Positions 6,001 to 62,731 of a stretch of DNA of 64,000 nucleotides are shown here, one piece after another. A program made the position numbers and the translations under genes. The first letter of the stretch is position 1. The number at the start of each line of letters is the position of its first letter. The stretch covers positions 558,001-622,000 of the forward strand of contig OZ024757.1 of assembly GCA_964016885.1 (NCBI GenBank). Reading direction: 5' to 3'. The notes below the pieces were generated by a model. That model searched no databases and was not told the DNA's origin. It saw only the letters and a program-made list of their open reading frames with translations. Source of the stretch: Eledone cirrhosa (taxonomy: Eukaryota).

Positions 6001-9000
6001 CAACAGTAGCTACTAGGGTGAGATAGTGACATTAGGGTGAAGACAGTAACTACTAGGGTGAGATAGTGACATTGGGGTAAAGAGAGTAGCTACTAGGGTG
6101 AGATAGTGACATTGGGGTGGAGAAAATAGTTACTAGGGTGAGAGAGTGACATTGGTGTGAAGACAGTAGCTACTAGGGTAAGATAGTGACATTGGGGTGA
6201 CAACAGTAGCTACTTGGGTGAGATAATGACATTGGAGTGAAGACAATAGCTACTAGGGTGAGATAGTGACATTGGGGTGAAGACAATAGCTACTAGGGTG
6301 AGATAGTGACATTGGGGTGAAGACAGTAGCTACTAGGGTGAGATAGTGACATTGGCGTGAAGACTAGCTACTAGGGTGAGATAGTGACATTGGGGTGAAG
6401 ACAGTAGCTACTAGGGTGAGATAGGGACATTGGGGTAACAACAGTAGCTACTAGGGTGAGATAGTGATATTAGAGTGAAGACAGAAGTTACTAGGGTGAG
6501 ATAGTGACATTGGGGTGGAGACAGAAGCTACTAGGGTGAGATAGTGACATTGGGGTGAAGACAGTAGCTACTAGGGTGAGAGAGTGACATTGGGGTGGAG
6601 AGAGTAGCTACTAGGGTGAGATAGTGACATTTGGTGAAGACAGTAGCTACTAGGGTCAGATAGTGACATTGGGGTGAGATAGAGACATTGGGGTGTAGAC
6701 AATTGTTACTAGGGTGAGATAGTGTCATTAGGGTGAAGACAGTAGCTACTAGAGTGAGATAGTGATCTTGGGGTGAAGACAATAGCTACTAGAGTGTGAC
6801 AGTGACATTAGTGTGAAGACAATAGCTACGAGGGTGAGATAGTGACATTGGTGTGAAGACAGTAGCTACTAGGGTGAGATAGTGACATTGGGGTGAAGAC
6901 AATAGCTACTAGGGTGAGATAGTGACATTGGGGTGAAGACAATAGCTACTAGGGTGAGATAGTGACATTGGTGTGAAGACAGTAGCTACTAGGGTGAGAT
7001 AGTGACATTGGGGTGAAGACAGTAGCTACTAGGGTGAGATAGTGACATTGGGGTGAAGACTAGCTACTAGGGTGAGATAGTGACATTGGGGTGAAGACAG
7101 TAGCTACTAGGGTGAGATAGGGACATTGGGGTGACAACAGTAGCTACTAGGGTGAGATAGTGACATTAGGGTGAATACATTACCTGCTAGGGTGAGATAA
7201 TGACATTGGGGTGAAGATAATAGCTACTAGGGTGAGATAGTGACATTGGGGTGAAGACAGTAGCTACTGGGTGAGATAGTGACATTGGGGTGAAGACAGA
7301 AGCTACTAGGTTATGATAGTTAAATTAGGGTGAAGACAGTAGCTACTAGGGTGATAGTGACATTAGAGTGAAGACAGTAGTTACTATGGTGAGATAGTGA
7401 CATTTGGGTGGAGACAATAGTTACTAGGGTGAGAGAGTGACATTGGAATGGAGAGAGTAGCTACTAGGGTGAGATAGTGACATTGGGGTGAAGACAGTAG
7501 CTACTAGGGTCAGATAGTGACATTGGGGTGAGATAGAGACATTGGGGTGTAGACAATAGTTACTAGGGTGAGATAGTGTCATTGGGGTGAAGACAGTAGC
7601 TACTAGAGTGAGATAGTGATCTTGGCGTGAAGACAATAGCTACTAGGGTGCGATAGTGATATTAGGGTGAAGACAATAGCTACTCGGGTGAGAGAGTGAC
7701 ATTGGTGTGAAGACATTAGCTACTAGGGTGAGATAGTGACATTGGGGTGAAGACAGTAGCTACTAGGGTGAGATAATGACATTGGCTTGAAGACACTAGC
7801 TACTAGGGTGAGATAGTGACATTGGGGTGACAACAGTAGCTACTAGGGTGAGATAGTGACATTAGGGTGAATACAGTAACTACTAGGGTGAGATAGTGAC
7901 ATTGGTGTGAAGACAGTAACTACTAGGGTGAGATAGTGACATTGGGGTGGAGAAAATAGCTACTAGGGTGAGAGAGTGACATTGGTGTGAAGACATTAGC
8001 TACTAGGGTGAGATAGTGACATTGGTGTGAAGACAGTAGCTACTAGGGTGAGATAGTGACATTGGTGTGAAGACAGTTGCTACTAGGGTGAGATAGGGAC
8101 ATTGGGGTGACAACAGTAGCTACTAGGGTGAGATAGTGACATTGGGTTGACAACAGTAGCTACTAGGGTGAGATAGTGACATTGGGGTGAAGACAGTAGC
8201 TACTGGGTGAGATAGTGACATTGGGATGAGATAGTGACATTGGGGTGACAACAGTAGCTACTAGGGTGAGATAGTGACATTAGGGTGAAGACAGTAACTA
8301 CTAGGGTGAGATAGTGACATTGGGGTAAAGAGAGTAGCTACTAGGGTGAGATAGTGACATTGGGGTGGAGAAAATAGTTACTAGGGTGAGAGAGTGACAT
8401 TGGTGTGAAGACAGTAGCTACTAGGGTAAGATAGTGACATTGGGGTGACAACAGTAGCTACTTGGGTGAGATAATGACATTGGAGTGAAGACAATAGCTA
8501 CTAGGGTGAGATAGTGACATTGGGGTGAAGACAATAGCTACTAGGGTGAGATAGTGACATTGGGGTGAAGACAGTAGCTACTAGGGTGAGATAGTGACAT
8601 TGGCGTGAAGACTAGCTACTAGGGTGAGATAGTGACATTGGGGTGAAGACAGTAGCTACTAGGGTGAGATAGTGACATTGGGGTGAAGACAGTAGCTACT
8701 AGGGTGAGATAGTGACATTGGGGTGAAGACAGTAGCTACTAGGGTGAGATAGGGACATTGGGGTAACAACAGTAGCTACTAGGGTGAGATAGTGATATTA
8801 GAGTGAAGACAGAAGTTACTAGGGTGAGATAGTGACATTGGGGTGGAGACAGAAGCTACTAGGGTGAGATAGTGACATTGGGGTGAAGACAGTAGCTACT
8901 AGGGTGAGAGAGTGACATTGGGGTGGAGAGAGTAGCTACTAGGGTAAGATAGTGACATTTGGTGAAGACAGTAGCTACTAGGGTCAGATAGTGACATTGG

Positions 9001-12000
9001 GGTGAGATAGAGACATTGGGGTGTAGACAATTGTTACTAGGGTGAGATAGTGTCATTAGGGTGAAGACAGTAGCTACTAGAGTGAGATAGTGATCTTGGG
9101 GTGAAGACAATAGCTACTAGAGTGTGACAGTGACATTAGTGTGAAGACAATAGCTACGAGGGTGAGATAGTGACATTGGTGTGAAGACAGTAGCTACTAG
9201 GGTGAGATAGTGACATTGGGGTGAAGACAATAGCTACTAGGGTGAGATAGTGACATTGGGGTGAAGACAATAGCTACTAGGGTGAGATAGTGACATTGGT
9301 GTGAAGACAGTAGCTACTAGGGTGAGATAGTGACATTGGGGTGAAGACAGTAGCTACTAGGGTGAGATAGTGACATTGTGGTGAAGACTAGCTACTAGGG
9401 TGAGATAGTGACATTGGGGTGAAGACAGTAGCTACTAGGGTGAGATAGGGACATTGGGGTGACAACAGTAGCTACTAGGGTGAGATAGTGACATTAGGGT
9501 GAATACATTACCTGCTAGGGTGAGATAATGACATTGGGGTGAAGATAATAGCTACTAGGGTGAGATAGTGACATTGGGGTGAAGACAGTAGCTACTGGGT
9601 GAGATAGTGACATTGGGGTGAAGACAGAAGCTACTAGGTTATGATAGTTAAATTAGGGTGAAGACAGTAGCTACTAGGGTGATAGTGACATTAGAGTGAA
9701 GACAGTAGTTACTATGGTGAGATAGTGACATTTGGGTGGAGACAATAGTTACTAGGGTGAGAGAGTGACATTGGAATGGAGAGAGTAGCTACTAGGGTGA
9801 GATAGTGACATTGGGGTGAAGACAGTAGCTACTAGGGTCAGATAGTGACATTGGGGTGAGATAGAGACATTGGGGTGTAGACAATAGTTACTAGGGTGAG
9901 ATAGTGTCATTGGGGTGAAGACAGTAGCTACTAGAGTGAGATAGTGATCTTGGCGTGAAGACAATAGCTACTAGGGTGCGATAGTGATATTAGGGTGAAG
10001 ACAATAGCTACTCGGGTGAGAGAGTGACATTGGTGTGAAGACATTAGCTACTTGTGTGAGATAGTGACATTGGGGTGGAGACAGTAGCCATTTTGGGTGA
10101 GATAGTGACATTGGGGTGAAGACACTAGCTACTAGGGTGAGATAGTGACATTGGGGTGAAGACAATAGCTACTAGGGTGAGATAGTGATATTAGGGTGAA
10201 TACAGTAACTACTAGGGTGAGATAGTGACATTGGGGTGAAGACAGTAACTACTAGGGTGAGATAGTGACATTGGGGTGAAGACAGTAGCTACAAGGGTGA
10301 GATCGTGACATTGGGGTGAAGACAGTAGATACTAGGGTAAGATAGTGATATTGGGGTGAAGACAGTAGCTACTACGGTGAGATAGGGACATTGGGGTGAC
10401 AACAGTAGCTACTAGGGTGAGATAGTGACATTCGGGTGAAGACAATAGCTACTAGGGTGAGATAATGACATTGGTGTGAAGACAGTAGCTACTAGGGTAA
10501 GATAGTGACATTGGGGTGACAACAGTAGCTACTAGGGGGGGATAGTGACATTGGCTTGAAGACAATAGCTACTAGGGTGAGATAGTGACATTGGGGTGGA
10601 GACAGTAGCTACTAGGGTGGGATAGTGACATTGGGGTGGAGACAGTAGCTACTAGGGTGGGATAGTGACATTGGGGTGGAGACAGTAGCTACTAGGGTGA
10701 GATAGTGACATTGGGGTGAAGACAGTAGCTACTAGGGTGAGATAGTGACATTGGGGTGACAACAGTAGCTACTAGGGTGAGATAGTGACATTGGGGTGAA
10801 GACAATAGCTATTTGGGTGAGATAGTGACATTGGTGTGAGATAGAGACATTGGGGTGTAGACAATTGTTACTAGGGTGAGATAGTGTCATTAGGGTGAAG
10901 ACAGTAGCTACTAGAGTGAGATAGTGATCTTGGGGTGAAGACAATAGCTACTAGAGTGCGACAGTGACATTAGGGTGAAGACAATAGCTACGAGGGTGAG
11001 GGAGTGACATTGGTGTGAAGACAGTAGCTACAAGGGTGAGATAGTGACATTGGGGTGAAGACAGTAGCTACTAGGGTGAGATAGTGACATTGGGGTGGAG
11101 AAAATAGCTACTAGGGTGAGAGAGTGACATTGGTGTGAAGACAGTAGCTACTAGGGTGAGATAGTGACATTGGTGTGAAGACAGTAGCTACTAGGGTAAG
11201 ATAGGGACATTGGGGTGACAACAGTAGCTATTAGGGTGAGATAGTGACATTGGTGTGAAGACAGTAGCTACTAGGGTAAGATAGTGACATTGGGGTGACA
11301 ACAGTAGCTACTAGGGTGAGATAGTGACATTGGGGTGAAGACAATAGCTACTAGGGTGAGATAGTGACATTGGTGTGAAGACAGTAGCTACTAGGGTAAG
11401 ATAGTGACATTGGGGTGACAACAGTAGCTACTTGGGTGAGATAATGACATTGGGGTGAAGACAATAGCTACTAGAGTGAGATAGTGTCATTGGGGTGAAG
11501 ACAATAGCTACTAGGGTGAGATAGTGACATTGGTGTGAAGACAGTAGCTACTAGGGTGAGATAGTGACATTGGGGTGAAGACAGTAACTACTAGGGTGAG
11601 ATAGGGACATTGGGGTGACAACAGTAGCTACTAGGGTAAGATAGTGACATTGGGGTGACAACAGTAGCTACTAGGGTGAGATAGTGACATTGGAGTGAAG
11701 ACAGTAGCTACTGGGTGAGATAGTGACATTGGGATGAAGACAGAAGCTACTAGGTTGTGATAGTGACATTAGGCTGAAGACAGTAGCTACTAGGGTGAGA
11801 GAGTGACATTGGGGTGGAGTGAGTAGCTACTAGGGTGAGATAGTGACATTGGGGTGAGATAGAGACATAGGGGTGTAGACAATTGTTACTAGGGTGAGAT
11901 AGTGTCATTAGGGTGAAGACAGTAGCTACTAGAGTGAGATAGTGATCTTGGGGTGAAGACAATAGCTACTAGAGTGTGACAGTGACATTAGGGTGAAGAC

Positions 12001-12560
12001 AATAGCTACGAGGGTGAGAGAGTGACATTGGTGTGAAGACAGTAGCTACAAGGGTGAGATAGTGACATTGGGGTGAAGACAGTAGCTACTAGGGTGAGAT
12101 AGTGACACTAGGGTGGAGACAGTAGATACTAGGGTGAGATAGTGACATTCGGGTGAAGACAGTAGCTACTAGGGGTGAGATAGTGACATTGGGGTGAAGA
12201 CAGTAGCTACTAGGGTGAGATAGTGACATTGGTGTGAAGACATTAGCTACTAGGGTGAGATAGTGACATTGGGGTGAAGACAGTAGATACTAGGGTGAGA
12301 TAGTGACATTGGTGTGAAGACAGTAGCTACTAGGGTGAGATAGGGACATTGGGGTGACAACAGTAGCTATTTGGGTGAGATAGTGACATTGGTGTGAAGA
12401 CAATAGCTACTAGGGTAAGATAGTGACATTGGGGTGCCAACAGTAGCTACTAGGGTGAGATAGCGACATTGGGGTGAAGACAATAGCTACTAGGGTGAGA
12501 TAGTGACATTGGTGTGAAGACAGTAGCTACTAGGGTGAGATAGTGACATTGGGGTGAAGA
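1..12560. repeat. 40-bp tandem satellite (~310 units in window, open at left edge) with higher-order structure
   Basis: Consensus TAGGGTGAGATAGTGACAT-TGGGGTGAAGACAGTAGCTAC repeated continuously. Diagnostic variant monomers recur at ~3.45-kb and 2.33-kb spacing. Confidence 0.98.
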
Positions 12561-14310: not shown

Positions 14311-16530
14311 CTAATTTCCTTTCTGAGAGAATGATTTACCATAGATATTACAGTGCCATGGCTTTTGTCCTGCCTGAATATATTTGTGAGTAGTTAAGCA
14401 AGTAGATAGAGAGGATGATTTCTCTCCTATATGGATGAGATTGTGTGTTGTTAAATGTCCTTCCAGAGAGAATGATTTACCACAGACATCACAGTGATAT
14501 GGTTTCTCTCCTGTATGGATGAGATTGTGTTTTGTTAAGTGTCCTTTCAGAGAGAATGATTTACCACAGACATCACAGTGGTATGGTTTCTCTCCTGTAT
14601 GAATACGTTTGTGATTTGTTAAGACATTATTTTGAGAGAATGATTTACCACAGATATCACAGTGATAGGGCTTCTCTCCTGTATGGATGAGATTGTGTGT
14701 TGCTAAGTGTCCTTTCAGAGAGAATGATTTACCACAGATATCACAGTGGTATGGTTTCTCTCCTGTATGAGTAAGATTGTGTGTTAATAAGCTTCCTTTC
14801 TGTGAAAATGACTTACCACAGATATTACAATGGTATGGCTTATCTCCTGTATGAGTAAGATTGTGTGTTAATAAGTTTCCTTTCTGTGAAAATGACTTAT
14901 CACAGGTATTACATTGATATGGCTTCTCTTCTGTATGAATAGATTTGTGATTTGTTAAGACATTATTTTGAGAGAATGATTTACCACAGATATCACAGTG
15001 GTATGGTTTCTCTCCTGTATGAATACGTTTGTGATTTGTTAAGACATTATTTTGAGAGAATGATTTACCACAGATATCACAGTGATAGGGCTTCTCTCCT
15101 GTATGGATGAGATTGTGTGTTGCTAAGTGTCCTTTCAGAGAGAATGCTTTACCACAGATACCACAGTGGTATGGTTTCTCTCCTGTATGAATACGTTTGT
15201 GATTTTTTAAGTCATTATTTTGAGAGAATGATTTACCACAGATATCACAGTGATAGGGCTTCTCTCCTGTATGGATGAGATTGTGTGTTGCTAAGTGTCC
15301 TTTCTGTGAAAATGATTTACCACAGATATCACAGTGGTATGGTTTCTCTCCTGTATGAGTAAGATTGTGTGTTAATAAGCTTCCTTTCTGTGAAAATGAC
15401 TTACCACAGATATTACAATGGTATGGCTTCTCTCCTGTATGAGTAAGATTGTGTGTTAATAAGTTTCCTTTCTGTGAAAATGATTTACCACAGATATTAC
15501 AGTGATATGGCTTCTCTTCTGTATGAATAGATTTGTGATTTGTTAAGACATTATTTTGAGAGAATAATTTACCACAGATATCACAGTGGTATGGTTTCTG
15601 TCCTGTATGAATACGTTTGTGATTTGTTAAGTCATTATTTTGAGAGAATGATTTACCACAGATATCACAGTGGTATGGTTTCTCTCCTGTATGAGTAAGA
15701 TTGTGTGTTAATAAGCTTCCTTTCTGTGAAAATGACTTACCACAGATATCACAATGGTATGGTTTCTCTCCTGTATGAGTAAGATTGTGTGTTAATAAGC
15801 TTCCTTTCTGTGAAAATGACTTACCACAGATATTACAGTGATATGGCTTCTCTCCTGTATGAGTGAGATTGTGTGTTAATAAGCTTCCTTTCTGTGAAAA
15901 TGACTTACCACAGATATTACAATGGTATCGCTTCTCTCCTGTATGAGTAAGATTGTGTGTTAATAAGCTTCCTTTCTGTGAAAATGAATTACCACAGATA
16001 TTACAATGGTATGGCTTCTCTCCTGTATGGATGAGATTGTGTGTTAATAAGCTTCCTTTCTGAGAGAATGATTTACCACAGATATCACAATGGTATGGCT
16101 TCTCTCCCGTATGAATACGTTTGTGATTTGTTAAGACATTATTTTGAGAGAATGATTTACCACAGATATTACAATGGTATGGTTTTTCTCCTGTATGGAT
16201 GAGATTGTGTATTGTTAAGTGTCCTTTCAGAGAGAATGACTTACCACAGATATTGCAGCGGTATGGTTTCTCTCCTGTATGAATACGTTTGTGATTTGTC
16301 AAGACATTATTACGAGAGAATGATTTACCACAGATATCACAGTGGTATGGTTTCTCTCCTGTATGGATGAGATTGTGTCTTGTTAAGTGTTCTTTCTGAG
16401 AGAATGATTTACCACAGATATCACAATGGTATGACTTCTCTCCTCTATTCTTTGTTATCTCATTAGGAATACTAATACCTTTAGGCAGTGTTTCACATTT
16501 AACCTTCTTCTCACCCAACTTATTTTCCAT
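14311..16530 (-). CDS. C2H2 zinc-finger protein with 24 tandem fingers, single coding exon (~739 aa from ATG MENK)
   Basis: Open frame with 24 CxxC-x12-HxxxH units and TGEKP linkers. The ORF-track start at 16551 is TTG; the first ATG at 16530 aligns with the paralog start. No KRAB/SCAN/BTB/ZAD domain visible. Confidence 0.93.
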
Positions 16531-18631: not shown

Positions 18632-18714
18632 GGAACTAGCTGTTCCAATGGCAAGCTGTCAGCTCAGTTGTCATGCTCTACTATCTCAAGTATTGAGTAC
18701 TCTGTAGAATAATG

Positions 18715-18718
<4 letters not shown>
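18632..18718 (+). mobile_element. Degenerate remnant related to the 33.2/61.4-kb hairpin element
   Basis: gaactagctgt...ctctactatctcaagtattgagtactctg..aatggtc matches ctctactaccctaagtatcgagtactctg..tatggtc; flanked by TA runs. Confidence 0.55.
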
Positions 18719-22355: not shown

Positions 22356-22707
22356 TTGAGATGATAGGTTTCTTATAAGCAGTTGATATACCGTAAGCTC
22401 TTGAGAATAAGCTGGTCCTAGTGATCCAAAAGCACTTCACATCAGTAGTTTATCCCAGGTAGGTGTTGGTAATTAGGAGAGACAGAGTAATGATTTATCA
22501 AATAAGAGTAGTTAAGATGGGATTAATTCACCATAATTGTTTATTGCATGATATATATTTCTGTGATATGGTTATTCATGTGACTTTATCAGATTCTTAC
22601 ACAATCATAGTTACAGTTATGTAATGATTGGGATATGTCAGTGGGCATGTATAACTATCCTGTAGTAATGTCAGCTGGCATATGTATCATGAATAGTAGT
22701 AGTAGTG

Positions 22708-24682
22708 AAATAACAAGGAATGATATGAGAGGTTATTGACTACTGGTAATGATATAACAAGGAATGATATGACAGGCTATTGACTACTGGTAGTGATATA
22801 ACAAGGAATGATATGACAGGCTATTGACTACTGGTAGTGATATAACAAGGAATGATATGACAGGCTATTGACTACTGTTAGTGATATAACAAGGAATGAT
22901 ATGACAGGTTATTGACTATTGGTAGTGATATAACAAGGAATGATATGACAGGCTATTGACTACTGGTAGTGATATAACAAGGAATGATATGACAGGCTAT
23001 TGACTACTGGTAGTGATATAACAAGGAATGATATGACAGGTTATTGACTACTGGTAGTAGTGATATGACAAGGAATGATATGACAGGTTATTGGCTACTG
23101 GTAGTGGTATAACAAGGAATGATATGACAGGTTATTGACTACTGGTAGTGATATAACAAGGAATGATATGACAGGCTATTGACTACTGCTAGTGATATAA
23201 CAAGGAATGATATGACAGGTTATTGACTATTGGTAGTGATATAACAAGGAATGATATGACAGGCTATTGACTACTGGTAGTGATATAACAAGGAATGATA
23301 TGACAGGCTATTGACTACTGGTAGTGATATAACAAGGAATGATATGACAGGCTATTGACTACTGGTAGTGATATAACAAGGAATGATATGACAGGCTATT
23401 GACTACTGGTAGTGATATAACAAGGAATGATATGAGAGGCTATTGACTACTGGTAGTGATATAACAAGGAATGATATGACAGGCTATTGACTACTGGTAG
23501 TGATATAACAAGGAATGATATGAGAGGCTATTGACTACTGGTAGTGATATAACAAGGAATGATATGACAGGCTATTGACTACTGGTAGTGATATAACAAG
23601 GAATGATATGAAAGGTTATTGACTACTGGTAGTGATATAACAAGGAATGATATGACAGGTTATTGACTACTGGTAGTAGTGATATGACAAGGAATGATAT
23701 GACAGGTTATTGGCTACTGGTAGTGGTATAACAAGGAATGATATGACAGGTTATTGACTACTGGTAGTGATATAACAAGGAATGATATGACAGGCTATTG
23801 ACTACTGCTAGTGATATAACAAGGAATGATATGACAGGTTATTGACTACTGGTAGTGATATAACAAGGAATGATATGACAGGTTATTGACTACTGGTAGT
23901 GATATAACAAGGAATGATATGAGAGGTTATTGACTACTGGTAGTGATATAACAAGGAATGATATGACAGGTTATTGACTACTGGTAGTGATATAACAAGG
24001 AATGATATGACAGGCTATTGACTACTGGTAGTGATATAACAAGGAATGATATGACAGGTTATTGACTACTGGTAGTAGTGATATAACAAGGAATGATATG
24101 ACAGGTTATTGGCTACTGGTAGTGATATAACAAGGAATGATATGACAGTCTATTGACTACTGGTAGTGATATAACAAGGAATGATATGACAGGCTATTGA
24201 CTACTGGTAGTGATATAACAAGGAATATGACATGACAGGCTATTGACTACTGGTAGTGATATAACAAGGAATGATATGACAGGCTATTGACTAATGGTAG
24301 TGATATAACAAGGAATGATATGACAGGCTATTGACTACTGGTAGTGATATAACAAGGAATATGACATGACAGGCTATTGACTACTGGTAGTGATATAACA
24401 AGGAATGATATGACAGGCTATTGACTACTGGTAGTGATATAACAAGGAATGATATGAGAGGCTATTGACTACTGGTAGTGATATAACAAGGAATGATATG
24501 ACAGGTTATTGACTACTGGTAGTGATATAACAAGTAATGATATGAGAGGTTATTGACTACTATCAGTAGTGATATAACAAGGAATGATATAACAGGTTAT
24601 TGGCTACTATCAGTAGTGATATAACAAGGAATGATATGAGAGGTTATTGACTATTGGTAGTGATTTAACAAGGAATGATATG
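22708..24682. repeat. 44-bp minisatellite (~45 units)
   Basis: Unit GATATAACAAGGAATGATATGACAGG(C/T)TATTGACTACTGGTAGT, highly homogeneous. Confidence 0.97.
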
Positions 24683-29039: not shown

Positions 29040-30772
29040 GGGAGGGTCATATTTGTGTAATATTGCCAGAATCAATAACAGAACACACTCACTGTTTGGT
29101 TGGTTTTCGCTTTTCGCTTCTGTGTCTTTTATATCGGAAATCTAATATAATATAATATACTCGGTCCTCAATGTTGCCATTGACTGACCGACGGTCAAAA
29201 ATTATACAGATACAATATAGACACAAACACATATATATAGTTTATCATAAATCTTTCGCAGCACATCTGCAACATCATCAGTGGTTCTATTGTTTCCTCC
29301 TGTTGAATTGTATGGCTACGCCATTTTTATTCAGTCTGTCTATATATTTATTTATTTATTTGCTTGTTTGTTTATTTTATTTTGTCTTCTTTGCGCATGC
29401 GTTTGCGTGTGTGTATAGTGTTTTGTTTGATGTGTTCGTGATTGGGTGATTAATGTGTGTTTATGTGTTTGTTGTTATTGTGCTTGTGTATGTATTTATT
29501 TATTTTATTTTATTTTATTTACTTATTTATATTTCTCTTAGGTCAGTGTTGTTTGTTTGGGTGTTGTTGTTATTCCATTCATTCTTTCTGTTTAGTCTTG
29601 GTCTTCTAATTTCTATTTCACTGGCCTCTCTGATTTGCCTATCTGCTGGGTCATTTCTATGTTTAGATATTATTCTAATTTCTATGCTGTCTATGTTACC
29701 GTCATGTTGTTGTCTGGCATGTTCGTATAGTACTGCCCCGTTTTTTCGTCCTTTTAGTTCCCCCCAGTGTTGGTCTATCCTTTCACCTATGCTATGAGCT
29801 GTCTCACCTATGTATGTTGTTGTCATGTTTCTGCAGGTACCCTCTGTACATCTTATGCTATAGACTACGTTTCTAGTTTTACAGTTTATCCGGGGGTTTA
29901 CCTTACATATGATACATTTCCTATTGGTACAGTGGGTTTTCTTAAAAGGGTAGGTTTTGCTGATCAGGGATTTTATGGTGGTTCCTGACTTTTCTACCAC
30001 CTTCATTTTTAAGTGGGTCTTTCTCAGGGCCTTTCTACACTGGTTAGCTAATATCCCTCCAGGGGTAGCGTCCACAAACATGACACTCTGGTATCTCTGG
30101 TTGTCGTACCATGAGGTGGCTTTCCCTATCTTATGTCTAGCCCTATCTAAGCTATTCCATGATTTGCTCCTGTATAATGGGCAAATTCCTTTCATGTCCA
30201 GTTTTATGAGGGTCTTATACTTCTCCATGGCTCCTTCGTATACTCTGACTCTGTCTTTGGTAGTAGCCAGAGAACTGCATATGGTTGATGAAGTGTTGGA
30301 TGTGTCTTTCCATTTCTGTTGGGCCGCACATGCGGGACACATTCTTCATCACTCGTACCAAATATGCGATCAGAATATTAAACTTAGCACTACTGGGCAT
30401 TGCTGAGTTTTTGAGTATCAGGTATTTGGAGGCCATGGGTTTAGCATAGTCTGAGTGGAGAATTTGGGCTCTCTCGTCTATAGTGTTAATCCAGAGTTCT
30501 GTGTCTAATACAGGTAGTCTATTGTTAGGGTGTTTGGAAGGGAAGTCGATAGTTACAGTTATACTCTGGTGTATGGAATTAGCTATCTGCTGGATGCTTT
30601 CCATTGTGCTACGTTCTAAATCAAACTTGTTAGTGCTCTCTAGTGGGGATGTTCTTATAACTATATTGATATCGTCTACATAACGAGAGTACATGATGAG
30701 GTCTATGGAGCTCTCATTAAGGAGATCTTTAAGTCTCCTTTCCCACCATACCATGAAAAGGTTGGCAATATA
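29040..30772 (-). mobile_element. 5'-truncated Penelope-like retroelement (Naiad-like): RT C-terminus + GIY-YIG endonuclease, frameshifted
   Basis: YSRYVDDI, LPVLDTELW, MQFSGY, PLYRSKSW, MFVDATPGG, Cys cluster and NVVYSIRC..YIGET..ERIDQH..IREA..LNRKNEW across ORFs 30215-30826 and 29527-30342. Confidence 0.88.
29254..29281 (-). ncRNA. Hammerhead core (partial) in the 3' region of the Naiad-like PLE
   Basis: Minus strand CTGATGA-T-GTTGCA gatg TGCTGC-GAAA; stem III and stem I' not recognisable. Confidence 0.5.
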
Positions 30773-31499
30773 TATACATATATATACGATAGCATGGGTC
30801 AGACTAGTCGTTCCGTTGTGAAACAAGTCAGATCAAACGACCATTTCTGCCTTGGTTTCTATTGCTGGATGGTCTTCCTAACACCAACCACATTTACAAG
30901 GTGGACTGTGCAGTTATTGTTGTCTCATGTCACTAACATGACCACTCTATAGGGTGGACTGGGAACTATTGTTGTGTCACCATCACAACAACCACCACCA
31001 CCTTAGAAGGCAGAGTAGGTGCTCTTTGTCATGTCACCAACTTGTGTGCTCATCAGGGCAGTTCAGGTGCCATCTGTCTTGCCACTAACATGACCACTTT
31101 ACAAAATGAGCTGGGTACCTTCTGTCATGTCCCCAACATGACCACCTCACAGGGTGGACCGATTACTTATTTGTCATTGCACCAGCACAACTACCTTGCA
31201 GGGAAGGTTAGCTACTGTTTTGTCATAACACCTGTATGACAACCTTACTGAGGGTGGACTGAGGGCTTTTAGCCATTTCAGCAGCATTCTGGGAGAGCAT
31301 GTTAAGCTTTCTATACTTGACTACATTGGTTGGTTAAGAGAGGTGCATCAGATGTGGAAAATGGTGTTGGGGTGTGTATGTAGGGTGTGGATTGGAGAGG
31401 TAGGTCAGTGTGGGGTACTGAGCTGGAAGGGGGTGGGGTGTTAAGGCATAGTAGGGTTATGGTGCGTGGAGGAGGAGAAGTGCTGCATACTTTAGACCA

Positions 31500-31790
31500 C
31501 TAAATGTAGCTATTTGCTGTAGTAGCACCCTGAACTTTTGCCATCCCCTTCTTACTCTGGTTAATGTACTTTCAGAACACTTACCTTCACTGCTGATTAG
31601 GTTACCCAGGTAATAGAAACTGTCAACTGCTTCTATAGAACCCTCAAAGAATCTCATAGAGCTTGTCCCCTGGGAGTGATTGCTGTTTACTGTTCCAATA
31701 CAATGACCACATATAAAACCTACGTTCTTAGTTAACTTACTTGTACATCTCTTGTGTACCAGAGTCTGCATTCGGGAAATAGGATTGAAT
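31500..31790 (-). mobile_element. RTE LINE fragment
   Basis: VHKRC..GFICGHC..EAVDSFYYLG..RVRRGWQKFR; homologs at 43.1-43.3 and 60.26-60.54 kb. Confidence 0.8.
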
Positions 31791-32191
31791 TTCTCTCATT
31801 CTTGCTATATACATTATATATTTATAAGTAAAGACATATTTTGATATACATGTTATATATATATATATATAAACACAGTAATGTGGTCATGACAAAAAGC
31901 GCCCAACCCAAATTGTAAAGTGGTTGTGTAGGTGTCATGACAAAGATCACCAACTGCTCACACTAAATATTGTTGGCGTTAGGAAGGACATTCGGCCATA
32001 AAAACCAAGCCAGAACCAGTTCTGTAGGAGTCAAATCTCATTGATTGTGGACTCACTTTCAGTTCTTTTTCAGAAACAACAACCAAAAACTAACAGAAAT
32101 GAATATGTAAAAAAATATGACAGGTTCCACATGATATTTTTAGTAGTGTTTTTATAAATTAAATAAAGACCCCAAATTTAATGTGAGGCTA

Positions 32192-32229
<38 letters not shown>

Positions 32230-33166
32230 CCATGGAGCTATAGAAGAAAATGTGGCATATATACATACACAGGGAAAAGATATGAAGAAGATAGTGGTAA
32301 GAAACTCTCAAGAGAGCTGGATAGCAGAAGTTCTTCAGAGAAGAAACACATCTCACACAAGTGTTTCAGTCCTTAACTTCTTACACTTTATAGGGGCCAG
32401 GCCACATACAAATCAATTAAGTCACGTGGAGTTTTGGTTGACAGGATCTAGCTGGAACTCAACATTGTTGCCTCTGGTTTCCAACTTATATCTAGAAACA
32501 TTGAGTTTGGAAAAATAACATTGGTTGTCATAGTAACAGTAAGATGTCAACAGTGCCACCACCCACCACCAACTACAAACATGACTTAGAGTTACCTACC
32601 TTAGAGTGTGTTAAAATACAAACAACACTCTCAAACTGTATGGAGGTGTTTTTGTTCAAGGGCTAAATATTAAGTAGATATGACATACACACAGAAGAGA
32701 TATAAAGTATGTATGACAAAATGTGCTGCAGCCAATAGAGGAGAGAGCAGATGTTGATATTAAAGCAGGTGTGTGTTGTTGGTTAATGTTGATTGAACAG
32801 GTGTTGTCTACTGGTTTTAGTAGTACCACCTTTCATGTAGGAGAGAGAGAGACGTTCAATACTAAAGCTTGTGTTTGTTGCTTTAGTGTCAGCTATGTTG
32901 ATTGTAAATAAGGCTAATTAGTCATTTACACAGGTGAAAAAACTATATATTTTCACCTGTCTCAAAGTCCAGCTGTAGGCAGAGGTAAGCACTGTGATGA
33001 CGAGAACCATTTTAGTTTGAAATGCAGAGACAAATATACTCCTTGCCTTTGCTGAATTCCACCAGATGGCACTGGCTGTCAGTCTTCTATTTATAACTGA
33101 GGCTTTCAAAATGTTTATTTATTAAACATGCCGTATATCTTAGATGTAGTAAATTCTCTCACATAC

Positions 33167-33203
<37 letters not shown>

Positions 33204-33205
<2 letters not shown>

Positions 33206-33392
33206 GAAAAGAGTCAGGACCCCGACGGCTGAGTTCTGGCCGTTTGACAGCTAGTTCAGATCCAGCTGTCAAAACGGCCAGAACTCAGCCGTCGGGGTCC
33301 TGACTCTTTTCCTATTACCCACTCTACTACCCTAAGTATCGAGTACTCTGGGGCATTATGGTCCACCTGGTTCCTTACTACACTTCCTTCAT
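33204..33392 (+). mobile_element. Fold-back (hairpin) element with hammerhead 3' half, in (TA)n
   Basis: Palindrome 33205-33312 followed by an 80-bp tail; flanked by TA runs. Confidence 0.8.
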
Positions 33393-33423
<31 letters not shown>

Positions 33424-33829
33424 ATATGTACGGGTAAAATTTGTTTGTGTGGATCAGTGTACAAACAAAAATAAGTAAGATTGCTTACCAAAGTATTTTT
33501 CTCGACATGGTCTTTGTATATTGTAAAATGCAGCGACCTCACCTCGAACTTTGAAATCTTTCTGATGAAATGCAGTATTTTATGTATTGCTAGTGATTGT
33601 GCATAATAATAATATGTAACCAGCTCTCGTAGACTGATATTGTATTGAAACATGGGTTAAAGAATGCACTTTGATTAAATTCTTCTCTTCTAACCTATAA
33701 TTCATGCCTAGTCATTTGTTTTTCTTATACATTTAAATATATACATATATATATGTGTGTGTGTGTGTGTGTAAATGATAAATAGAAATAACACTATATA
33801 TATATATATATAGATAGATATATATATAG

Positions 33830-45039: not shown

Positions 45040-45594
45040 ATTAAGTAACCTTTACAAGAGAATTATTTACCACAGACATCACAGTGATATGGTTTATCTC
45101 CTGGATATGTTAGTATCTAGTAAAGCCACAACATTTAGAGAGTCGTTTACCATATCAAAGTGTTATGGCTTCCCAACTGTATGTATATGTTTGTGTATAA
45201 TAAATGTAGCATTCAAAGAGAATGATTTCCTACAGATACCACACTGATATGTATTTGTGTTTCATTAATTAAACAATTGCTTCTCTCTTGTATGTATATA
45301 TTTGTGAGAAGTTAACTACATTCAGAGAATTATTTACCAGATATCACAGTGATATGACATGTCTCCTGTTATGTATGTTTGTGGGAATTAACGTGACTAC
45401 TTCGAGAGAATGATTTACCACAGATATCACACTGATATGGCTTGTCTCCTGTATGTATAAGTTTGTGCTTTATCAAAATTCCTTTTTCAGAGAATGATTC
45501 ACCACAGATATCACAGTGATATGGCTTCTCTCCTGTATGAACATGTTTGTGTCTAGTTAAGTGAATACTTTGAGAGAATGATTTACCACAGATA
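45040..45594 (-). pseudogene. About three out-of-frame fingers followed by degenerate fingers
   Basis: ORF 45369-45626 continues the array in another frame; eroded finger motifs extend to ~45040; polyA signal at 44956-44961. Confidence 0.85.
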
Positions 45595-46710
45595 TCAGTG
45601 ATATGGCTTGTCTCCTGTATGCACATGTTTGTGTCTAGTTAAGTAAATACTTTGAGAGAATGATTTACCACATATATCACAGTGATATGGCTTGCCGCCT
45701 GTATGTACATGTTTGTGTCTAGTTAAGGTACAACTAACAGAGAATGATTTACCACAGACATCACAGTCATATGGCTTTTCTCCTGAATGTATAAGTTTGT
45801 GCTTTAACAAGCTTCCTTTATGAGAAAATGATTTACCACAGATATCACAGTGATATGGCTTCTCTCCTGTATGTATACGTTTATGGGAGGTTAAGGTACT
45901 ACTTTCAGAGAAAGATTCACCACAGATATCACAGTGATATGGTTTCTCTCCTGTATGTATACGTTTGTGTCTAGTTAATTCAATACTTTGAGAGAATGAT
46001 TTACCACAGATATCACAGTGATATGGCTTGTCTCCTGTATGTATACGACTGTGATTTATCAAGCTTCCTTTATGAGAGAATGATTCACCGCAGATTTCAC
46101 AGTGATATGGCTTCTCTCCTGTATGTATACGTTTATGGGAAGTTAAGTGACTACTTTCAGAGAATGATTTACCACAGATTTCACAGTGATATGGCTTCTC
46201 TCCTGTATGTATACGTTTATGGGAAGTTAAGTGACTACTATCAGAGAATGATTTTCCACAGATATCACAGTCATATGGCTTCTCTCCTGTATGTACATGT
46301 TTGTGCTTTATCAAGCTTCCTTTTTGAGTGAATGATTTACCGCAGATCTCACAGTGATATGGTTTCTCTCCTGTATGTATACGTTTATGGGAAGTTAAGT
46401 TACTACGTACAGAGAATGATTTCCCACAGATATCACAGTGATATGGCTTCTCTCCTGTATGTACATGTTTGTGCTTTATCAAGCTTCCTTTTTGAGAGAA
46501 TGATTCACCGCAGATATTACAGTGATATGGCTTCTCTCCTGTATGTACACGTTTATGCATAGTTAAGTTGCTCTTATTAAAGAATGATTTTTTACAGATA
46601 TCACAGTGATATGGCTTCTCTTTTGTATCGTTTGTCATCTCATCAGGTATAGTAATCCTTTTAGACAGTGTTTTACATTTTATCTTCTCACTGAATTTAT
46701 TTTCCATCAT
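45595..46710 (-). CDS. C2H2 zinc-finger protein, 12 intact fingers, truncated by a frameshift (371 aa)
   Basis: [15 protein letters not shown] leader plus 12 C2H2 units. The stop arises from gatatcagtg in place of gatatcacagtg (2-bp loss). Confidence 0.85.
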
Positions 46711-56799: not shown

Positions 56800-58990
56800 A
56801 TTAGTTGTTTACATTTCTCATATGAGTTACGAAGGATGTTGATTCTGCATTTTACATAAAAAAAACACGTAGTTCAAGTTGTAAGAGGAGAACAATTTGT
56901 AGATTCGAATATTTTGTTCTAACATTGGAAATGTTTTCAGAGTATTGTTAATTTAGCGAAGTTATATAGTTTATCATACATATTATATTATAATATAATG
57001 TTTGTTTGCTCGATTTAAAAGGAAAAGATAACTCCAATCTTGTTTGCTAACCGTTAAATTTGATGAATGATTTACTCAGAAAATATATAGAGAAAATTAT
57101 ATATTATTTTGTGTGAGATTAATTTCAATTATATATTATTTTAGTCGAAACATGTGGGAAAGTTTGAAGATCAAAGAAGAGGAAAAAAGTAATGTGAATT
57201 TCGATGCACTATCGTAAAGAGGATAAATTTCAGAATTTCAATTAAAAATTATCAATCTACATCTAAAAAAATATATTTAGAGGAGTATCATTAAGAAAAT
57301 AATGTCAAATGGTAAAAATAGTAAAAATATTTTTAAAAAATATTTTTAAAATATTAAAAATTAAGAAGAAAGATCATTTAAAAAAATTTAAATTTAAATT
57401 TTTAAAGAAAATACTCAGTAAACAATAGGATCATTTTAAAGGTGTATAAGATATAGTCAAGTGTAATGAATATCATAAAGTAAAAATACTTCTGAAAGTG
57501 GAATTTTGACGATGTCTGAAACTAGAAAATAATTCTGTTTTAAGATTAATAATGTTGACAGTTAACTATATAAAAAGATTTCCTCGATACACAAGTTACA
57601 GAATCTTGAGAAAGCCATATTTCGGTATGCAGGTGCTCTCGAAATCGTTCCCCAAGATATTGAATAGTCTATATTGTTGTCTTTTAAATTCCAAATTAAA
57701 TGTGAAAGTGAAGTGGAATATTTTTATCGGATCTATTAAATGTGTGTTTATGGTTATAGCAGCGTTCTTTGAATTTTGTAAAAGTGGCACCAATATAGTT
57801 AAATATTTTGTCTCTAGTTTTAACTGGGCAATTATAAATTACGTTTTTGTCTAAGCAATTATTTTGTAAGGGGCGGTTTGATTTAATTCTACAGTTACAT
57901 TTTCTGGAGTTGTTGTTATTCGGAACGGTACTATTATTATGAATATTGTTGTTAGAAATATTATTATTGCTATCTTGGTTTGTTTGGTTAGGGTTTAAAT
58001 TTAAGTTTCTATTATTAATTCTATTTATATTTTGTGCTATGTTCATAGTAGTAGAGTAAGATAGTTTTATAGTGTGTCTGTTAAAAATAGAGTGGTTTCC
58101 GTGGGCTTTAGGAAAACATTTATCTAGTGCTTTAAAAAATAGCTTTGCTAAAGGTGTTTTAACGCTTAATGAGAATGGGGTATAGTACCAAATAATATTT
58201 CTAGTTCTAGTTTTTTTGTTTGGTTTAGTATTTAAGTTAAATTGTTTATTATTATTATAATTAATTCTAGGATGATTTGTCATGTTATTGTTATCTATGT
58301 ATTTAATTTTATTCGAGTATCCTGCTCTATGTAAAGCCTCATTGTAATATTCTGCCTTATCTTTAAAAATATTTTTATTAACAGAGATGCGTGAAATCCG
58401 TTGTTGGACACGATTGACAATAGTGTTTTTTATATTTCTAGGATGATTAGAATTGAAACTTACGTAATTTAGATTTTCCTTAATTTTATGGAATGGATAG
58501 TAAAGACCTGTGCTAAGGTTTAAGGTTACATCTAAGTTAACGATTTTGTAATTATTTTCGATTTCTAAATTCAGGTTGTAGTTGTTGAAAAATTGTATTA
58601 TGGATTTCCTTTTCCTATTAATTTCACTATCGAGCAAACATAAACATTATATTATAATATAATATGTATGATAAACTATATAACTTCGCTAAATTAACAA
58701 TATTCTGAAAACATTTCCAATGTTAGAACAAAATATTCGAATCTACAAATTGGTCTCCTCTTACAACTTGAACAATATGTTTTTTTAATGTAAAATGCAG
58801 AATCAACACCCTTCGTAATTCATATGAGAAATGTAAACAACTAATAATTGTAACTTATTTCTATTTCTATAATACTTATACATGCACAATTATTAATCTA
58901 TATAGATATTTATATACTTACAACCTGTTGTAATGTAATAAGATAAAATCTACTTACAACCATAATTCTTCATATAATCTAATTGATTTG
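56800..58990 (-). mobile_element. 5'-truncated Penelope-like retroelement (Nematis-like) with inverted terminal-repeat copy
   Basis: ORF 57696-58637: LDVTLNL..SNHP..RIS..YNEAL..GY..RNIIWY..IFNRHTIKLSYS..CNCR..VIY..YIG..FKER..NH (GIY-YIG). 58630-58990 is the reverse complement of 56800-57013 plus 54420-54560. Confidence 0.88.
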
Positions 58991-61389
58991 TTGGGTTACC
59001 AACAAATTGAATATTCCTTTTGCTTATATATATATATCCCCACTGAAAGTTTCGTGAAATAGTCTTTTAAGACTAAACAGAGCATTTGTAGTTTTTTCAA
59101 ATTGAAGGATTTCACCAAATTCTGTGGATAAATCTATATCCTGATTCTTTTTGAATTGAGTTTGAATTATTTTCCCACATCTTACGTTAACTATTTTTCC
59201 ACTTTGACGCTATAGTCATTTATATATTATGGAATACTGTTAGCTTCTTGCTACAATAATTTCTATACTTTTCATTTATATATATATATATATTTGAAAA
59301 AAGGGAAAAGAATGACTGTTAACAAGTGAAGTCATTCTTTTCCTTTTTTTCATATATACCTAACTGTACTAAGGATCTCACACATTTTCCAATATATATA
59401 TATACATATACATATACATATATATATATATATACATACATATATATATATGTATAAATATATATACATACATTGAAGCCCCCCCCCCATCTCGGTCACG
59501 AATGACCCTGAAAATTTATATAAATATATATACATATATATACGATAGCATGGGTCAGACTACCTTGGTTTCTATTGCTTGATGTCCTTCCTAACACCAA
59601 CCACATTTACAATGTGGACTGGTTGCTTTTCTTGCCTTACCAAAATGACCTATTTATAGGGTGGACTGGGCAGTTATTGTCTCATGTCACTAACATGACC
59701 ACCCTGGAGGGTGGACTGGGTTCTTATTGTTGTGTCACCATCACAAAAAACACGACCACCACCTTAGAAGGCAGAGTGAGTGTATTATCTGTCATGTCAC
59801 CAACTTGAGTACTCATCAGGGCAGCTTGGGTGCCATCTGTCTTGCCACTAACATGACCACTTTACAAAATGAGCTGGGTACCTTCTGTCATGTCCCCAAC
59901 ATGACCACCTCACAGGGTAGACTGATTACTTATTTGTCATGTCACCAGCACAACTACCTTGCAGGGAAGGTTAACTGCTGTTTTGTCATAACACCTGTAT
60001 GACAACCTGACTGAGGGTGAACTGAGGGCTTTTAGCCATTTCAGCAGCATTGTGGGAGAGCATGTTAAGCTTTCTATACTTGACTACATTGGTTGGTCAA
60101 GAGAGGTGCATCAGATGTGGAAAATGGTGTTGGGGTGTGGATTGGAGAAGTAGGTCAGTGTGGGGTACTGAGCTGGAAGGTGGTGGGGTGTTAAGGCATA
60201 GTAGGGTTATGGTGCGTGGAGGAGGAGAAGTGATGCATACTTTAGACCACTAAATGTAGCTATTTGCTGTAGTAGCACCCTGAACTTTTGCCATCCCCTT
60301 CTTACTCTGGTTAATGTACTTTCAGAACACCTACCTTCACTGCTGATTAGGTCACCCAGGTAACAGAATCTGTCAACTGTTCTATAGAACCCTCAAAGAA
60401 TTTCATAGAGCTTGTCCCCTGAGAGTGATTGCTGTTTACTGTTCCAATACAATGACCACATATAAAACCTACATTCTTTGTTAACTTACCTTGGATCCCA
60501 GTACATCTCTTGTGTACCAGATTCTGTATTCAGGACAAAGGATTGAATTTCTCTCACTCTCGCTATATACTTTATATATTTATAAGTGAAGACATATTTT
60601 GATATACATGTTATATATAGGCGCCAGGCCACATCCAGGTCAATTAAGTCACATGGAGTTTTGGTTGACAGGATCTAGCTGGAACTCAACTTTGTTGCCT
60701 CTGGTTTCAAACTTATATCTAGAAACTTTGAGATTGGGAAAATAACATTGGTTGTCATGGTAACAGTAAGATGTCAACAGTGCCACCACCAACTACAAAC
60801 ATGACTTAGAGTTACCTACCTTAGAGTGTGTTCAAATACAAACACAATACCCTCAAACTGTATGGAGGTGTTTTTGTTCAAGGGCTAAATATTAAGTAGA
60901 TATGACATACACACAGAAGAGATATAAAGTATGTATGACAAAATGTGCTGCAGCCAATAGAGGAGAGAGCAGATGTTGATATTAAAGCAGGTGTATGTTG
61001 TTGGTTAATGTTGATTGAACAGGTGTTGTCTACTGGTTTTAGTAGTACCACCTTTCATGTAGGAGAGAGAGACGTTCAATACTGAAGCTTGTGTTTGTTG
61101 CTTTAGTGTCAGCTACTCTGTTGATTGTAAATGAGGCTAATTAGTCATTTACACAGGTGAAAAAACTATATGTTTTCACCTGTCTCAAAGTCCAGCTGTA
61201 GGCAGAGGTAAGCACTGTGATGACGAGAACCATTTTAGTTTGAAATGCAGAGACAAATATACTCCTTGACTTTGCTGAATTCCACCAGATGGCGCTGGCT
61301 GTCAGTCTTCTATTTATAACTGAGGCTTTCAAAACGTTTATTTATTAAACATGCCATATATCTTAGATGTAGTAAATTCTCTCACATAC

Positions 61390-61436
<47 letters not shown>

Positions 61437-61438
<2 letters not shown>

Positions 61439-61626
61439 GAAAAGAGTCAGGACCCCGACGGCTGAGCTCCAGCCATTTCGACAGCTAGTTCAGATCCAGC
61501 TGTCAAAACGGCCAGAACTTAGCCGTCGGGGTCCTGACTCTTTTCCTATTACCCACTCTACTACCCTAAGTATCGAGTACTCTGGTGTGTTATGGTCCAC
61601 CTGGTTCCTTACCACACTTCCTTCAT
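61437..61626 (+). mobile_element. Fold-back hairpin element (duplicate of 33204-33392)
   Basis: Same position within the duplicated block; the left arm retains TTTC (GAAA on the minus strand). Confidence 0.8.
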
Positions 61627-61656
61627 TATATATATATATATATATATAAAGATATG

Positions 61657-61853
61657 CCGAAGGAAATGTGGTAAGGAACCAGGTGGACCATAACGCACCA
61701 AAGTACTCAATACTTGGGGTAGTAGAGTGGGTAATAGGAACCAGTAAGACCCCGACGGCTGAGCTCAAGCTGTTTCGACGGCTAATTCTGGACTAAGTCC
61801 AGAATTAGCCGTCGAAACGGCTTGAGCTCAGCCGTCGGGGTCTTACTGGTTCC
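61657..61853 (-). mobile_element. Independent fold-back hairpin element insertion with 12-bp TSD
   Basis: TATAAAGATATG at 61645-61656 and 61854-61865; a single copy at the paralogous site ~33417-33428; 123-bp palindrome at 61734-61856. Confidence 0.88.
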
Positions 61854-62046
61854 TATAAAGATATGTACGGATAAAATTTGATGTGTGGATCAGTGTACAA
61901 ATGAAAATAAGTAAGATTGCTTACCAAAGTATTTTTCTTGACATGGTCTTTGTATATTGTAAGATGCAGCGACCTCACCTCGAACTTTGAAATCTTTCTG
62001 ATGAAATGTAGTATTTTATGTATTGTTAGTGAATGTGCATAATAAT

Positions 62047-62230
62047 TGTTTCTACTTTTGGCACAAGGCCAGCAATTAACCAGTACATTACTGGTACTTT
62101 ATTTTATCGACCCCATAAGAATGCAAGGCAAAGTTAACCTTGGCGTGATTTGATTCAGACCATAAAGGGCCGTAACTCTTTCCTGCAAAGCATGACACCT
62201 GACTCTCTACTGATACTGCCAATCCACTGC
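62047..62230 (-). mobile_element. Nin/Deu-like SINE with 17-bp TSD
   Basis: TGAATGTGCATAATAAT at 62030-62046 and 62231-62247; empty site at ~33594. Confidence 0.92.
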
Positions 62231-62342
62231 TGAATGTGCATAATAATATGTAACCAGCAGTTGTAGACTGATATTGTATTGAAACATGGGTTAAAGAATG
62301 GACTTTGATTAAATTCTTCTCTTCTAACCTATATTTCATGCC

Positions 62343-62731
62343 TAGTGACATTGGGGGAAGACAATAGCTACTAGGGTGAGATAGTGACATTGGGGTGAAG
62401 ACAGTAGCTACTAGGGTGAGATAGTGACATTGGGGTGAAGACAGTAGCTACTAGGGTGAGATAGTGATATCAGAGTGAAGACAATAGCTGCTAGGGTGAG
62501 ATAGTGACATTGGGGTGAAGACAGTAGCTACTAGGGTGAAATAGTGACATTGGAGTGGAGACAGTAGCTACTAGGGTGAGATAGTGACATTATGGTACAG
62601 ACAGTAGTTACTAGGGTGAGATAATGACATTAGGGTGAAGACAGTAGCTGCTAGGGTGAGATAGTGACATTGGGGTCAAGACAGTAGCTACTAGGGTGAG
62701 ATAGTGACATTGGGGTGAAGACAGTAGCTAC
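62343..62731. repeat. Short (~10-unit) array of the 40-bp satellite
   Basis: Same consensus and orientation as 1-12560, followed by the same RTE fragment. Confidence 0.97.

Follow-up and report, generated by a model that had tools for sequence, protein, structure and literature searches.

Short palindromic insertions of a Penelope-like element in Eledone cirrhosa and their ends inside a predicted hammerhead ribozyme

One of the questions raised by a short palindromic insertion is how its two arms came to be made, and from what template. The window considered here, a stretch of 64,000 nucleotides from the genome of Eledone cirrhosa (assembly GCA_964016885.1, contig OZ024757.1, positions 558,001 to 622,000 of the forward strand), contains such an insertion, in which two opposed copies of one half of a hammerhead ribozyme lie within a target-site duplication (TSD). 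What is the element from which the insertion derives, what is it about the hammerhead region that makes each arm end there, and how are two copies of the same piece of sequence joined head to head? The answer favoured here, which the sequence comparisons below make probable, is that the insert is a short non-coding Penelope-like insertion that arose by twin target-primed reverse transcription, with both cDNAs running off the 5' end of the RNA and being joined head to head.

The insert and its target site

The sequence TATAAAGATATG occurs three times in the window, twice as the TSD that brackets the insert and once, as a single copy, at an empty paralogous site (Table 1). The paralogous segments (30767-33712 and 59523-62346) match at 88-95% in collinear blocks, and at the target the second segment is complete relative to the first and has, in addition, the insert and one further TSD copy. 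TSD lengths, where resolvable, are 12, 12 and 14 bp. A reading of this DNA made earlier from its letters alone had described the 197-bp insert, its 12-bp duplication, the empty paralogous site and a 123-bp palindrome, all of which were found again, as was its proposal that the inverted arm meets the target at TAT, the bases common to the second TSD copy and outer end B. It had also described the order GAAAC-stem III-GTC-GGGGTC on both strands with the 5' core missing, and this is indeed the content of the insert, which is without a complete hammerhead core since the 5' core and the 5' strand of stem I are absent. That reading had named the fixed terminal inverted repeats and TSD of a DNA transposon as grounds for its own refutation; in the family the centres vary among copies and a tail lies beyond the inverted pair, which places the insert outside the definition of a MITE or DNA transposon.

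Table 1. Features of the insert and its surroundings (window positions).
Feature	Position	Strand	Remarks
TSD copy 1, 12 bp	61645..61656	.	edge of (TA)n tract
Insert	61657..61853		197 bp, between the two TSD copies
Single base matching neither parent nor TSD	61657..61657	.	
Tail-bearing arm	61658..61798	-	parent positions 3391-3531; outer end A at 61658
76-nt 'tail' between two fixed outer ends	61658..61733	-	inferred RT start sites A and B
Palindrome	61734..61856		123 bp, 97.6%, centre 61795
3' half of type I hammerhead (predicted)	61749..61784	-	
Stem II 3' strand	61784-61777	-	
GAAAC	61776-61772	-	followed by stem III
Predicted cut	between 61754 and 61753	-	
Stem I 3' strand	61753-61749	-	
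Inverted arm	61796..61856	+	parent positions 3395-3455, outer end B
TSD copy 2	61854..61865	.	opening TAT shared with the element at outer end B
Empty paralogous target site, single TSD copy	33417..33428	.	
Older short inverted copy, sister subfamily	61437..61625	+	same architecture
Paralogue of older copy	33204..33391	+	

The tail-bearing arm is identical to one parent copy (L031) at 140 of 142 bases, and at the junction three bases (ACT) are common to both arms. An older short inverted copy, overlooked in the sequence-only reading and from a sister subfamily with 932 pattern matches genome-wide, is present in both paralogues and is thus older than the segmental duplication, the insert being younger than it. 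The sole mismatch between the palindrome arms (61771/61819), an A against a G at parent position 3418, was considered as a trace of RNA editing or of two templates and this was rejected, since in an unselected set A was present in none of 57 tail arms and in one of 57 inverted arms; a sporadic CpG change is the explanation adopted, and the frequency of the mismatch among matches to the insert is ascribed to query bias.

Elsewhere in the window are a 40-bp minisatellite (1-12560, about 315 copies, and again at 62.3 kb, 62343-62731), a 44-bp array (22702-24682) and 84-bp tandem arrays (14415-16448 and 45321-46628), which resemble C2H2 zinc-finger coding repeats on the minus strand.

The parent element and its hammerhead

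Searching the 3.0-Gb genome with the insert returned longer copies, in which the DNA upstream encodes an ORF of the RT/GIY-YIG type. The parent unit is 3,531 bp in length, with complete units in head-to-tail arrays at up to 100% identity and an intact ORF of 716 amino acids. The encoded protein contains the Hydra motifs RWR37, DKT117, YRDD348, CxCX5C572 (CNCPDRSIC), YIG606, CxxC..E670 (CNLCSEE) and N..CxH (N..CKH 689), with no match to GxKF/Y anywhere in its 716 residues. Its look-alikes in the ESM Atlas (0.96-0.99) belong to GIY-YIG and RVT_1 families, a PDB sequence search with the protein gave no match, and neither did a Pfam search with a truncated 637-aa copy. The single ORF with RT and, at its C terminus, a GIY-YIG endonuclease is that of EN+ Penelope-like elements (PLEs), and the architecture is also theirs, with tandem and partial-tandem units forming pseudo-LTRs, inverted 5' copies and a tail; the flanks of copies display an insertion preference for (TA)n. 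By its motifs and organisation the parent is a PLE of Hydra-clade character, in agreement with the source that the sequence-only reading had suggested, namely a PLE with an RT-GIY-YIG-type ORF and a hammerhead in its pseudo-LTR. The family is represented by 16,488 exact A-type pattern matches genome-wide against 0 in a reversed control, so that the pattern of the insert does not reflect chance.

A number of relatives of this element were also encountered. At C1:437.2 Mb, C1:91.5 Mb and C2:320.6 Mb (L134-L135, L137-L138 and L139-L140) between 3 and 4.5 full units stand head to tail in an array, at 98.6-100% identity, as expected from rolling-circle copying or tandem transcripts, and in the array at C1:91.5 Mb a 55-bp piece of the ORF is repeated about 65 times at the inversion junction. 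At a further locus (L136, G000:C2:356029790-356032020) about 7.5 direct units of 299 bp are found, each with a complete U3-A8 hammerhead (with shortened loop II), the tail and the first 125 nt after the tail, and with a 5' end also at 3394; this locus is a retrozyme-like derivative of the same family. Within the window itself, a fragment of a second, AT-rich Hydra-type ORF (57574-58628, minus strand), with 39-48% amino-acid identity to the parent, is flanked by inverted arms at 56800-57003 and 58642-58845 (96%), and a short degenerate tail fragment of the same superfamily lies between TA tracts at 18676-18717.

In the parent the order is stem I, TTGAGAA, stem II, GAAAC, stem III, GTC and stem I, such that the core is UUGAGAA, a U3-A8 variant with the general form TTGANAA. 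The sequence-only reading had proposed a search for a parent in which CTGANGA lies upstream of the hairpin on an RT-GIY-YIG ORF; the ORF-bearing parent exists, and a search for a CTGANGA parent gave 0 matches. Likewise, the palindrome arm that had been taken for stem II is not this helix, since the native stem II is a different one of about 8 bp with a long loop. The minimum-energy fold is a three-way junction in both of the full-length parents folded, with z-scores of only -1.3 and -0.6, and differs from such a junction in the L136 and L155 variants. Across 15 hammerhead sequences 96.5% of cells are paired and three pairs have two-sided changes; core position 7 varies freely, and U3 is found with A8 in 11 of the 15 and with G8 in two, the remaining two having a C-A mismatch. 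The 5' half of the hammerhead matches at 5,180 places in the genome, and Rfam gave no match with either the 64-kb window or the parent pseudo-LTR. From this alignment and folding the parent is predicted to carry a type I hammerhead, with three helices and the core in place. An RNA starting in loop II would be without the 5' core and therefore without cleavage in cis, and in silico such an RNA co-folds with the 5' half into a hammerhead (3346-3370 plus 3391-3446). The U3-A8 core is a published PLE hammerhead variant (PMC4209133).

Some subfamily masters with a mismatched C3-A8 core (L175, L190, L191 and L201) have still produced copies, which suggests that mobility may not depend on cleavage. 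At L033 (C3:322.14 Mb) a different element, in which the hammerhead-like motif is a canonical CTGAAGA...GAAAC, ends directly upstream of a copy of the family at the same TA tract.

Where the copies begin and end

Fundamental to the origin of the insert is the distribution of ends across its family, which was determined for 95 of the first 100 among the matches listed, all situated within the initial 42 Mb of C1 and including at least two pairs that are not independent. The outer ends are fixed: tail arms end at unit positions 3531-3535 (site A), and of the 80 copies with an inverted arm 68 have it ending at 3455 (site B), the other 15 having a tail arm without an inverted partner. Genome-wide the two patterns are near 1:1, with 18,246 B-type matches against 16,488 of the A type. 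The inverted arm is longer by at least 5 nt in 12 of 75 short copies, it is the longer arm in L031, L032 and L035, and in one array the arm that ends at B measures 16 kb, the one that ends at A only 280 bp. Either arm can thus be the long one, and a single self-copying cDNA cannot produce such copies. Both arms have the same subfamily variant in 60 of 67 cases (six differ and one could not be assigned), as in all 20 of a scripted cut-site subset described below, and the arms are therefore copies of one RNA or of sibling RNAs.

The inner ends are concentrated in one zone. Of the tail arms 66 of 95, and of the inverted arms 59 of 75, stop at 3389-3401, with a further 19 and 14, respectively, stopping downstream of this and a single arm of each kind at 3316-3388. 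This zone is inside loop II and lies about 20 nt further on than the foot of stem II, at which foot no more than two arms of each kind stop; it is just downstream of the apex (3387-3390) of a distal hairpin predicted in loop II by minimum-energy folding. Among the 75 junctions 55 are distinct, that of the insert recurs 51 times genome-wide, and one junction is found on different subfamily variants. By eye, 30 loci of the sister subfamily of the older copy have the same stop zone. Whether the zone is passed relates to the template: on hand-assigned classes, and with full traversal of the unit assumed for most of the long copies, it is passed by 10 of 95 arms on first passage, by 44 of the 50 copies extending at least 238 nt into the ORF, and by none of the 17 short tandems re-primed in the first 230 nt of the ORF. 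Such template-dependent passage is not predicted by a fixed structural stall, and is predicted by a linear RNA that begins in the zone together with continuous templates, tandem or circular. Only 2 of the 50 long copies end at the zone, where a simple start-to-end mRNA predicts more.

Is there, then, a sign of a transcription start within loop II? Fourteen of 15 sequences preserve the motif T[TC]AGT at 3393-3397, and this (TCATTT / T[TC]AGT) resembles the initiator consensus, although the initiator reading is weak. The match to a DPE downstream of the putative start is poor, and no cap-G signature was seen among nine short spacers. An Inr/DPE promoter has been placed in the pseudo-LTR of Penelope itself (PMC2377424). 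A single RNA run gave one 140-nt piece of the element, elsewhere than the predicted ends. In run X2, strand-switch joints were found at the stop zone, where depth exceeds that of the bin upstream about 14-fold; this run, perhaps from the assembly's own sample, argues only against an assembly artefact. At two loci (L046 and L091) there are poly-T runs at the inner junction, which may reflect a switch of template to a poly(A) tail or the addition of A residues to a cDNA end.

A second and much smaller set of inner ends coincides with the predicted ribozyme cut. A targeted search for paired cut-site ends, with a pattern that would also catch pairs ending up to 7 nt further upstream, gave 314 matches. 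Among the 100 of these that were listed, by hand count, each of the two arms stops precisely at G3436 in 44, with a spacer between them that is non-templated and mostly A/T; blunt joints at G3436, which CG microhomology could also explain, account for 29, and other arrangements for 27. When 20 of the listed rows were examined by script, 13 were exact, three blunt and four other, all with matching arms and starting at site B. Of 14 rows without the GTC triplet, six begin at GGGGTC by eye and eight have point changes. The class amounts to about 1% of insertions, and its peak appears only in the targeted search: the aligner run on the first 100 matches listed gave two ends at 3436, which is not significant (p=0.14). 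As indirect evidence, the G3436-ended class points to cleavage by the hammerhead in vivo, and it supports the view that inner ends mark the 5' ends of RNA.

Twin priming would bring these features together as follows. The endonuclease of the element would make one nick in each strand of a TA-rich target, with 12 bases between the nicks, and each 3' end would prime at a fixed position within the RNA, either A or B; these two sites are 76 nt apart, and at each of them TAT/TTAT can pair with the target. The template would usually be a linear RNA with its 5' end about 140 nt upstream of A and about 65 nt upstream of B, inside loop II, this end probably being a transcription start at A3391-A3395 where the cDNAs would run off. 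The two short cDNAs would be end-joined, in this case via ACT (or with one added T), to give the palindrome and tail, and fill-in would generate the TSD. Templates that run uninterrupted through the pseudo-LTR would give rise to the longer and tandem copies, and RNA already cut by the hammerhead to the minor class.

The alternative that survives best accepts twin priming and sees the zone instead as the place of a nuclease cut in the RNA, or of a protein block to RT, at the apex of an extended stem II hairpin. The predicted distal apex adjoins the zone and the three core pairs of this hairpin are 93% paired across the 15 sequences, although none of its pairs has a two-sided change. The zone is 10 nt wide, as against the sharp peak at the cut site, and of the loci primed near the zone four or five begin at 3386-3391, as the 3' end of a cut RNA would give, yet such loci number only six genome-wide. 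A block by protein or structure, moreover, should halt copies that enter from the ORF, most of which pass. This alternative is considered improbable.

More doubtful still is the route that the sequence-only reading had put first, in which a single cDNA, having stalled at stem II, turns back to serve as its own template and is then joined to the target at TAT. The palindrome centre does lie in the region of stem II, junction overlaps of 1-4 nt are common (20 of 47), one copy (L084) keeps the apex loop, and three (L049, L059 and L112) fold at local palindromes. However, the 3' foot of stem II is the end point of only two of the 95 tail arms and its 5' strand of none, the apex loop is retained in just one of 75 junctions, and several of the tail arms without an inverted partner end in the same zone. 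An arm made by self-copying can be no longer than its template, yet inverted arms are often the longer, up to the 16 kb against 280 bp of the array above; copies coming in from the ORF mostly run through the site, and the copies with both arms at G3436 and non-templated spacers offer no hairpin for folding. Fold-back is thus largely refuted as a general route, and may account for a few percent of copies.

Could the mobile unit instead be a short non-autonomous element, either a fixed palindrome, as that reading had also offered, or short copies with their own start in which the palindrome is rebuilt at each insertion? Short copies do predominate, with 85 of 95 stopping at or downstream of the zone, an internal start site, if real, is present in every one of them, and the 299-bp retrozyme-like array exists. 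The fixed form is contradicted by the junctions, since the one in the insert is limited to 51 copies, 55 of the 75 sampled differ, and the same junction is found on different subfamily variants. The re-primed tandems include ORF sequence (+45 to +230), and so had coding RNA as their template. A separate short element is accordingly very unlikely, and its 'rebuilt each time' version, which may still hold, would use the same mechanism as twin-primed run-off. Finally, it is scarcely credible that longer palindromes were inserted first and lost their centres to cruciform-driven deletion, for although perfect inverted repeats are unstable and the junctions asymmetric, copies 99-100% identical to the master already have the short form, long inverted copies persist, and deletions would not be expected to respect a single upstream limit, or to stop precisely at G3436 with A/T added.

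Known systems and what the copies may record

Twin priming is familiar from L1, where both target ends prime cDNA to give an inversion with a TSD and the arms copy different parts of the RNA; in the insert, by contrast, both arms copy the same part from two fixed sites, and a palindrome results. Within PLEs themselves, inverted 5' copies, tails, TA targeting and hammerheads are already known (PMC8557442). The family resembles the Hydra clade (PMC8557442) in its single ORF with a C-terminal endonuclease, RWK-like and DKT motifs, CxCX5C linker, CxxC/CxH and absence of GxKF/Y, and also in (TA)n targeting, a pseudo-LTR hammerhead and an inverted 5'-truncated copy with a tail. It differs in being 3.5 kb in length, against less than 3 kb, in having a tail of 76 nt, against 30-40, and in its U3-A8 core with a long loop II, where Hydra has a canonical core (PMC8557442); compared by eye, its protein clearly differs from Hydra-1_Obim (PMC8557442 supplement).

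A close functional parallel is PAc, the Poseidon element of Anolis carolinensis (PMC11167929), for which both target strands are cut and, in vitro, extended from two internal RT start sites that bound the tail, and which also has AT-rich targets and a hammerhead near the pLTR-ORF junction. PAc belongs to another clade and primes without target homology, whereas sites A and B of the family display TAT/TTAT (PMC11167929). No RNA reads of PAc ended at its hammerhead cut, whereas many insertions of the family end exactly at the predicted cut; in the sections consulted the account does not extend to an explanation of inverted arms or to run-off palindromes, and the later steps of PAc insertion are given there as unvalidated (PMC11167929).

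The hammerheads of the Cercyon PLE of Schistosoma mansoni (PMC4209133) share the U3-A8 core, a long helix II, a short helix I and motif pairs on opposite strands 100-700 bp apart, although they are minimal motifs without helix III, whereas in the family helix III is 5 bp long and capped by a palindromic loop, and a monomer is enough for the fold in silico. Metazoan non-LTR retrozymes (PMC7229834; bioRxiv 10.64898/2026.07.22.740005) are, like the insert, short, non-coding and PLE-related with a type I hammerhead. They are direct tandems of complete ribozymes, whereas the insert is an inverted pair of half ribozymes, and it is L136 that fits the retrozyme pattern. A literature search limited largely to openly readable papers found no description of palindromes formed by run-off, or of insertions that end where a PLE hammerhead cuts.

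On its own the insert is ordinary, and the interest rests upon the family-wide end statistics and a mechanism that can be tested. More tentatively, and with the balance lying a little against it, the sequence patterns may be read more broadly: the mini-palindromes would be a fossil map of the 5' ends of PLE RNA, with transcription starting inside the hammerhead such that the 5' end of the mRNA has only the substrate half, which the 3' pseudo-LTR could complete in trans; the G3436 ends would reflect germline cleavage by a metazoan PLE hammerhead, with the cut RNA serving as template; and PLE inverted ends in general would be twin-primed from two fixed RT start sites.

The formation of inverted ends by PLEs and the role of their hammerheads are both treated as open in the literature (PMC8557442, where hammerhead function is 'still unclear'; PMC11167929), and the G3436 ends bear upon the question of cleavage in vivo. 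A young, intact family of about 17,000 copies permits nucleotide-level predictions for both, namely that priming is twin and uses two sites, and that 5' ends of the RNA lie at 3391-3396 and at G3436. If twin-primed run-off is correct, the copies would themselves record where the RNA starts and where the hammerhead cuts.
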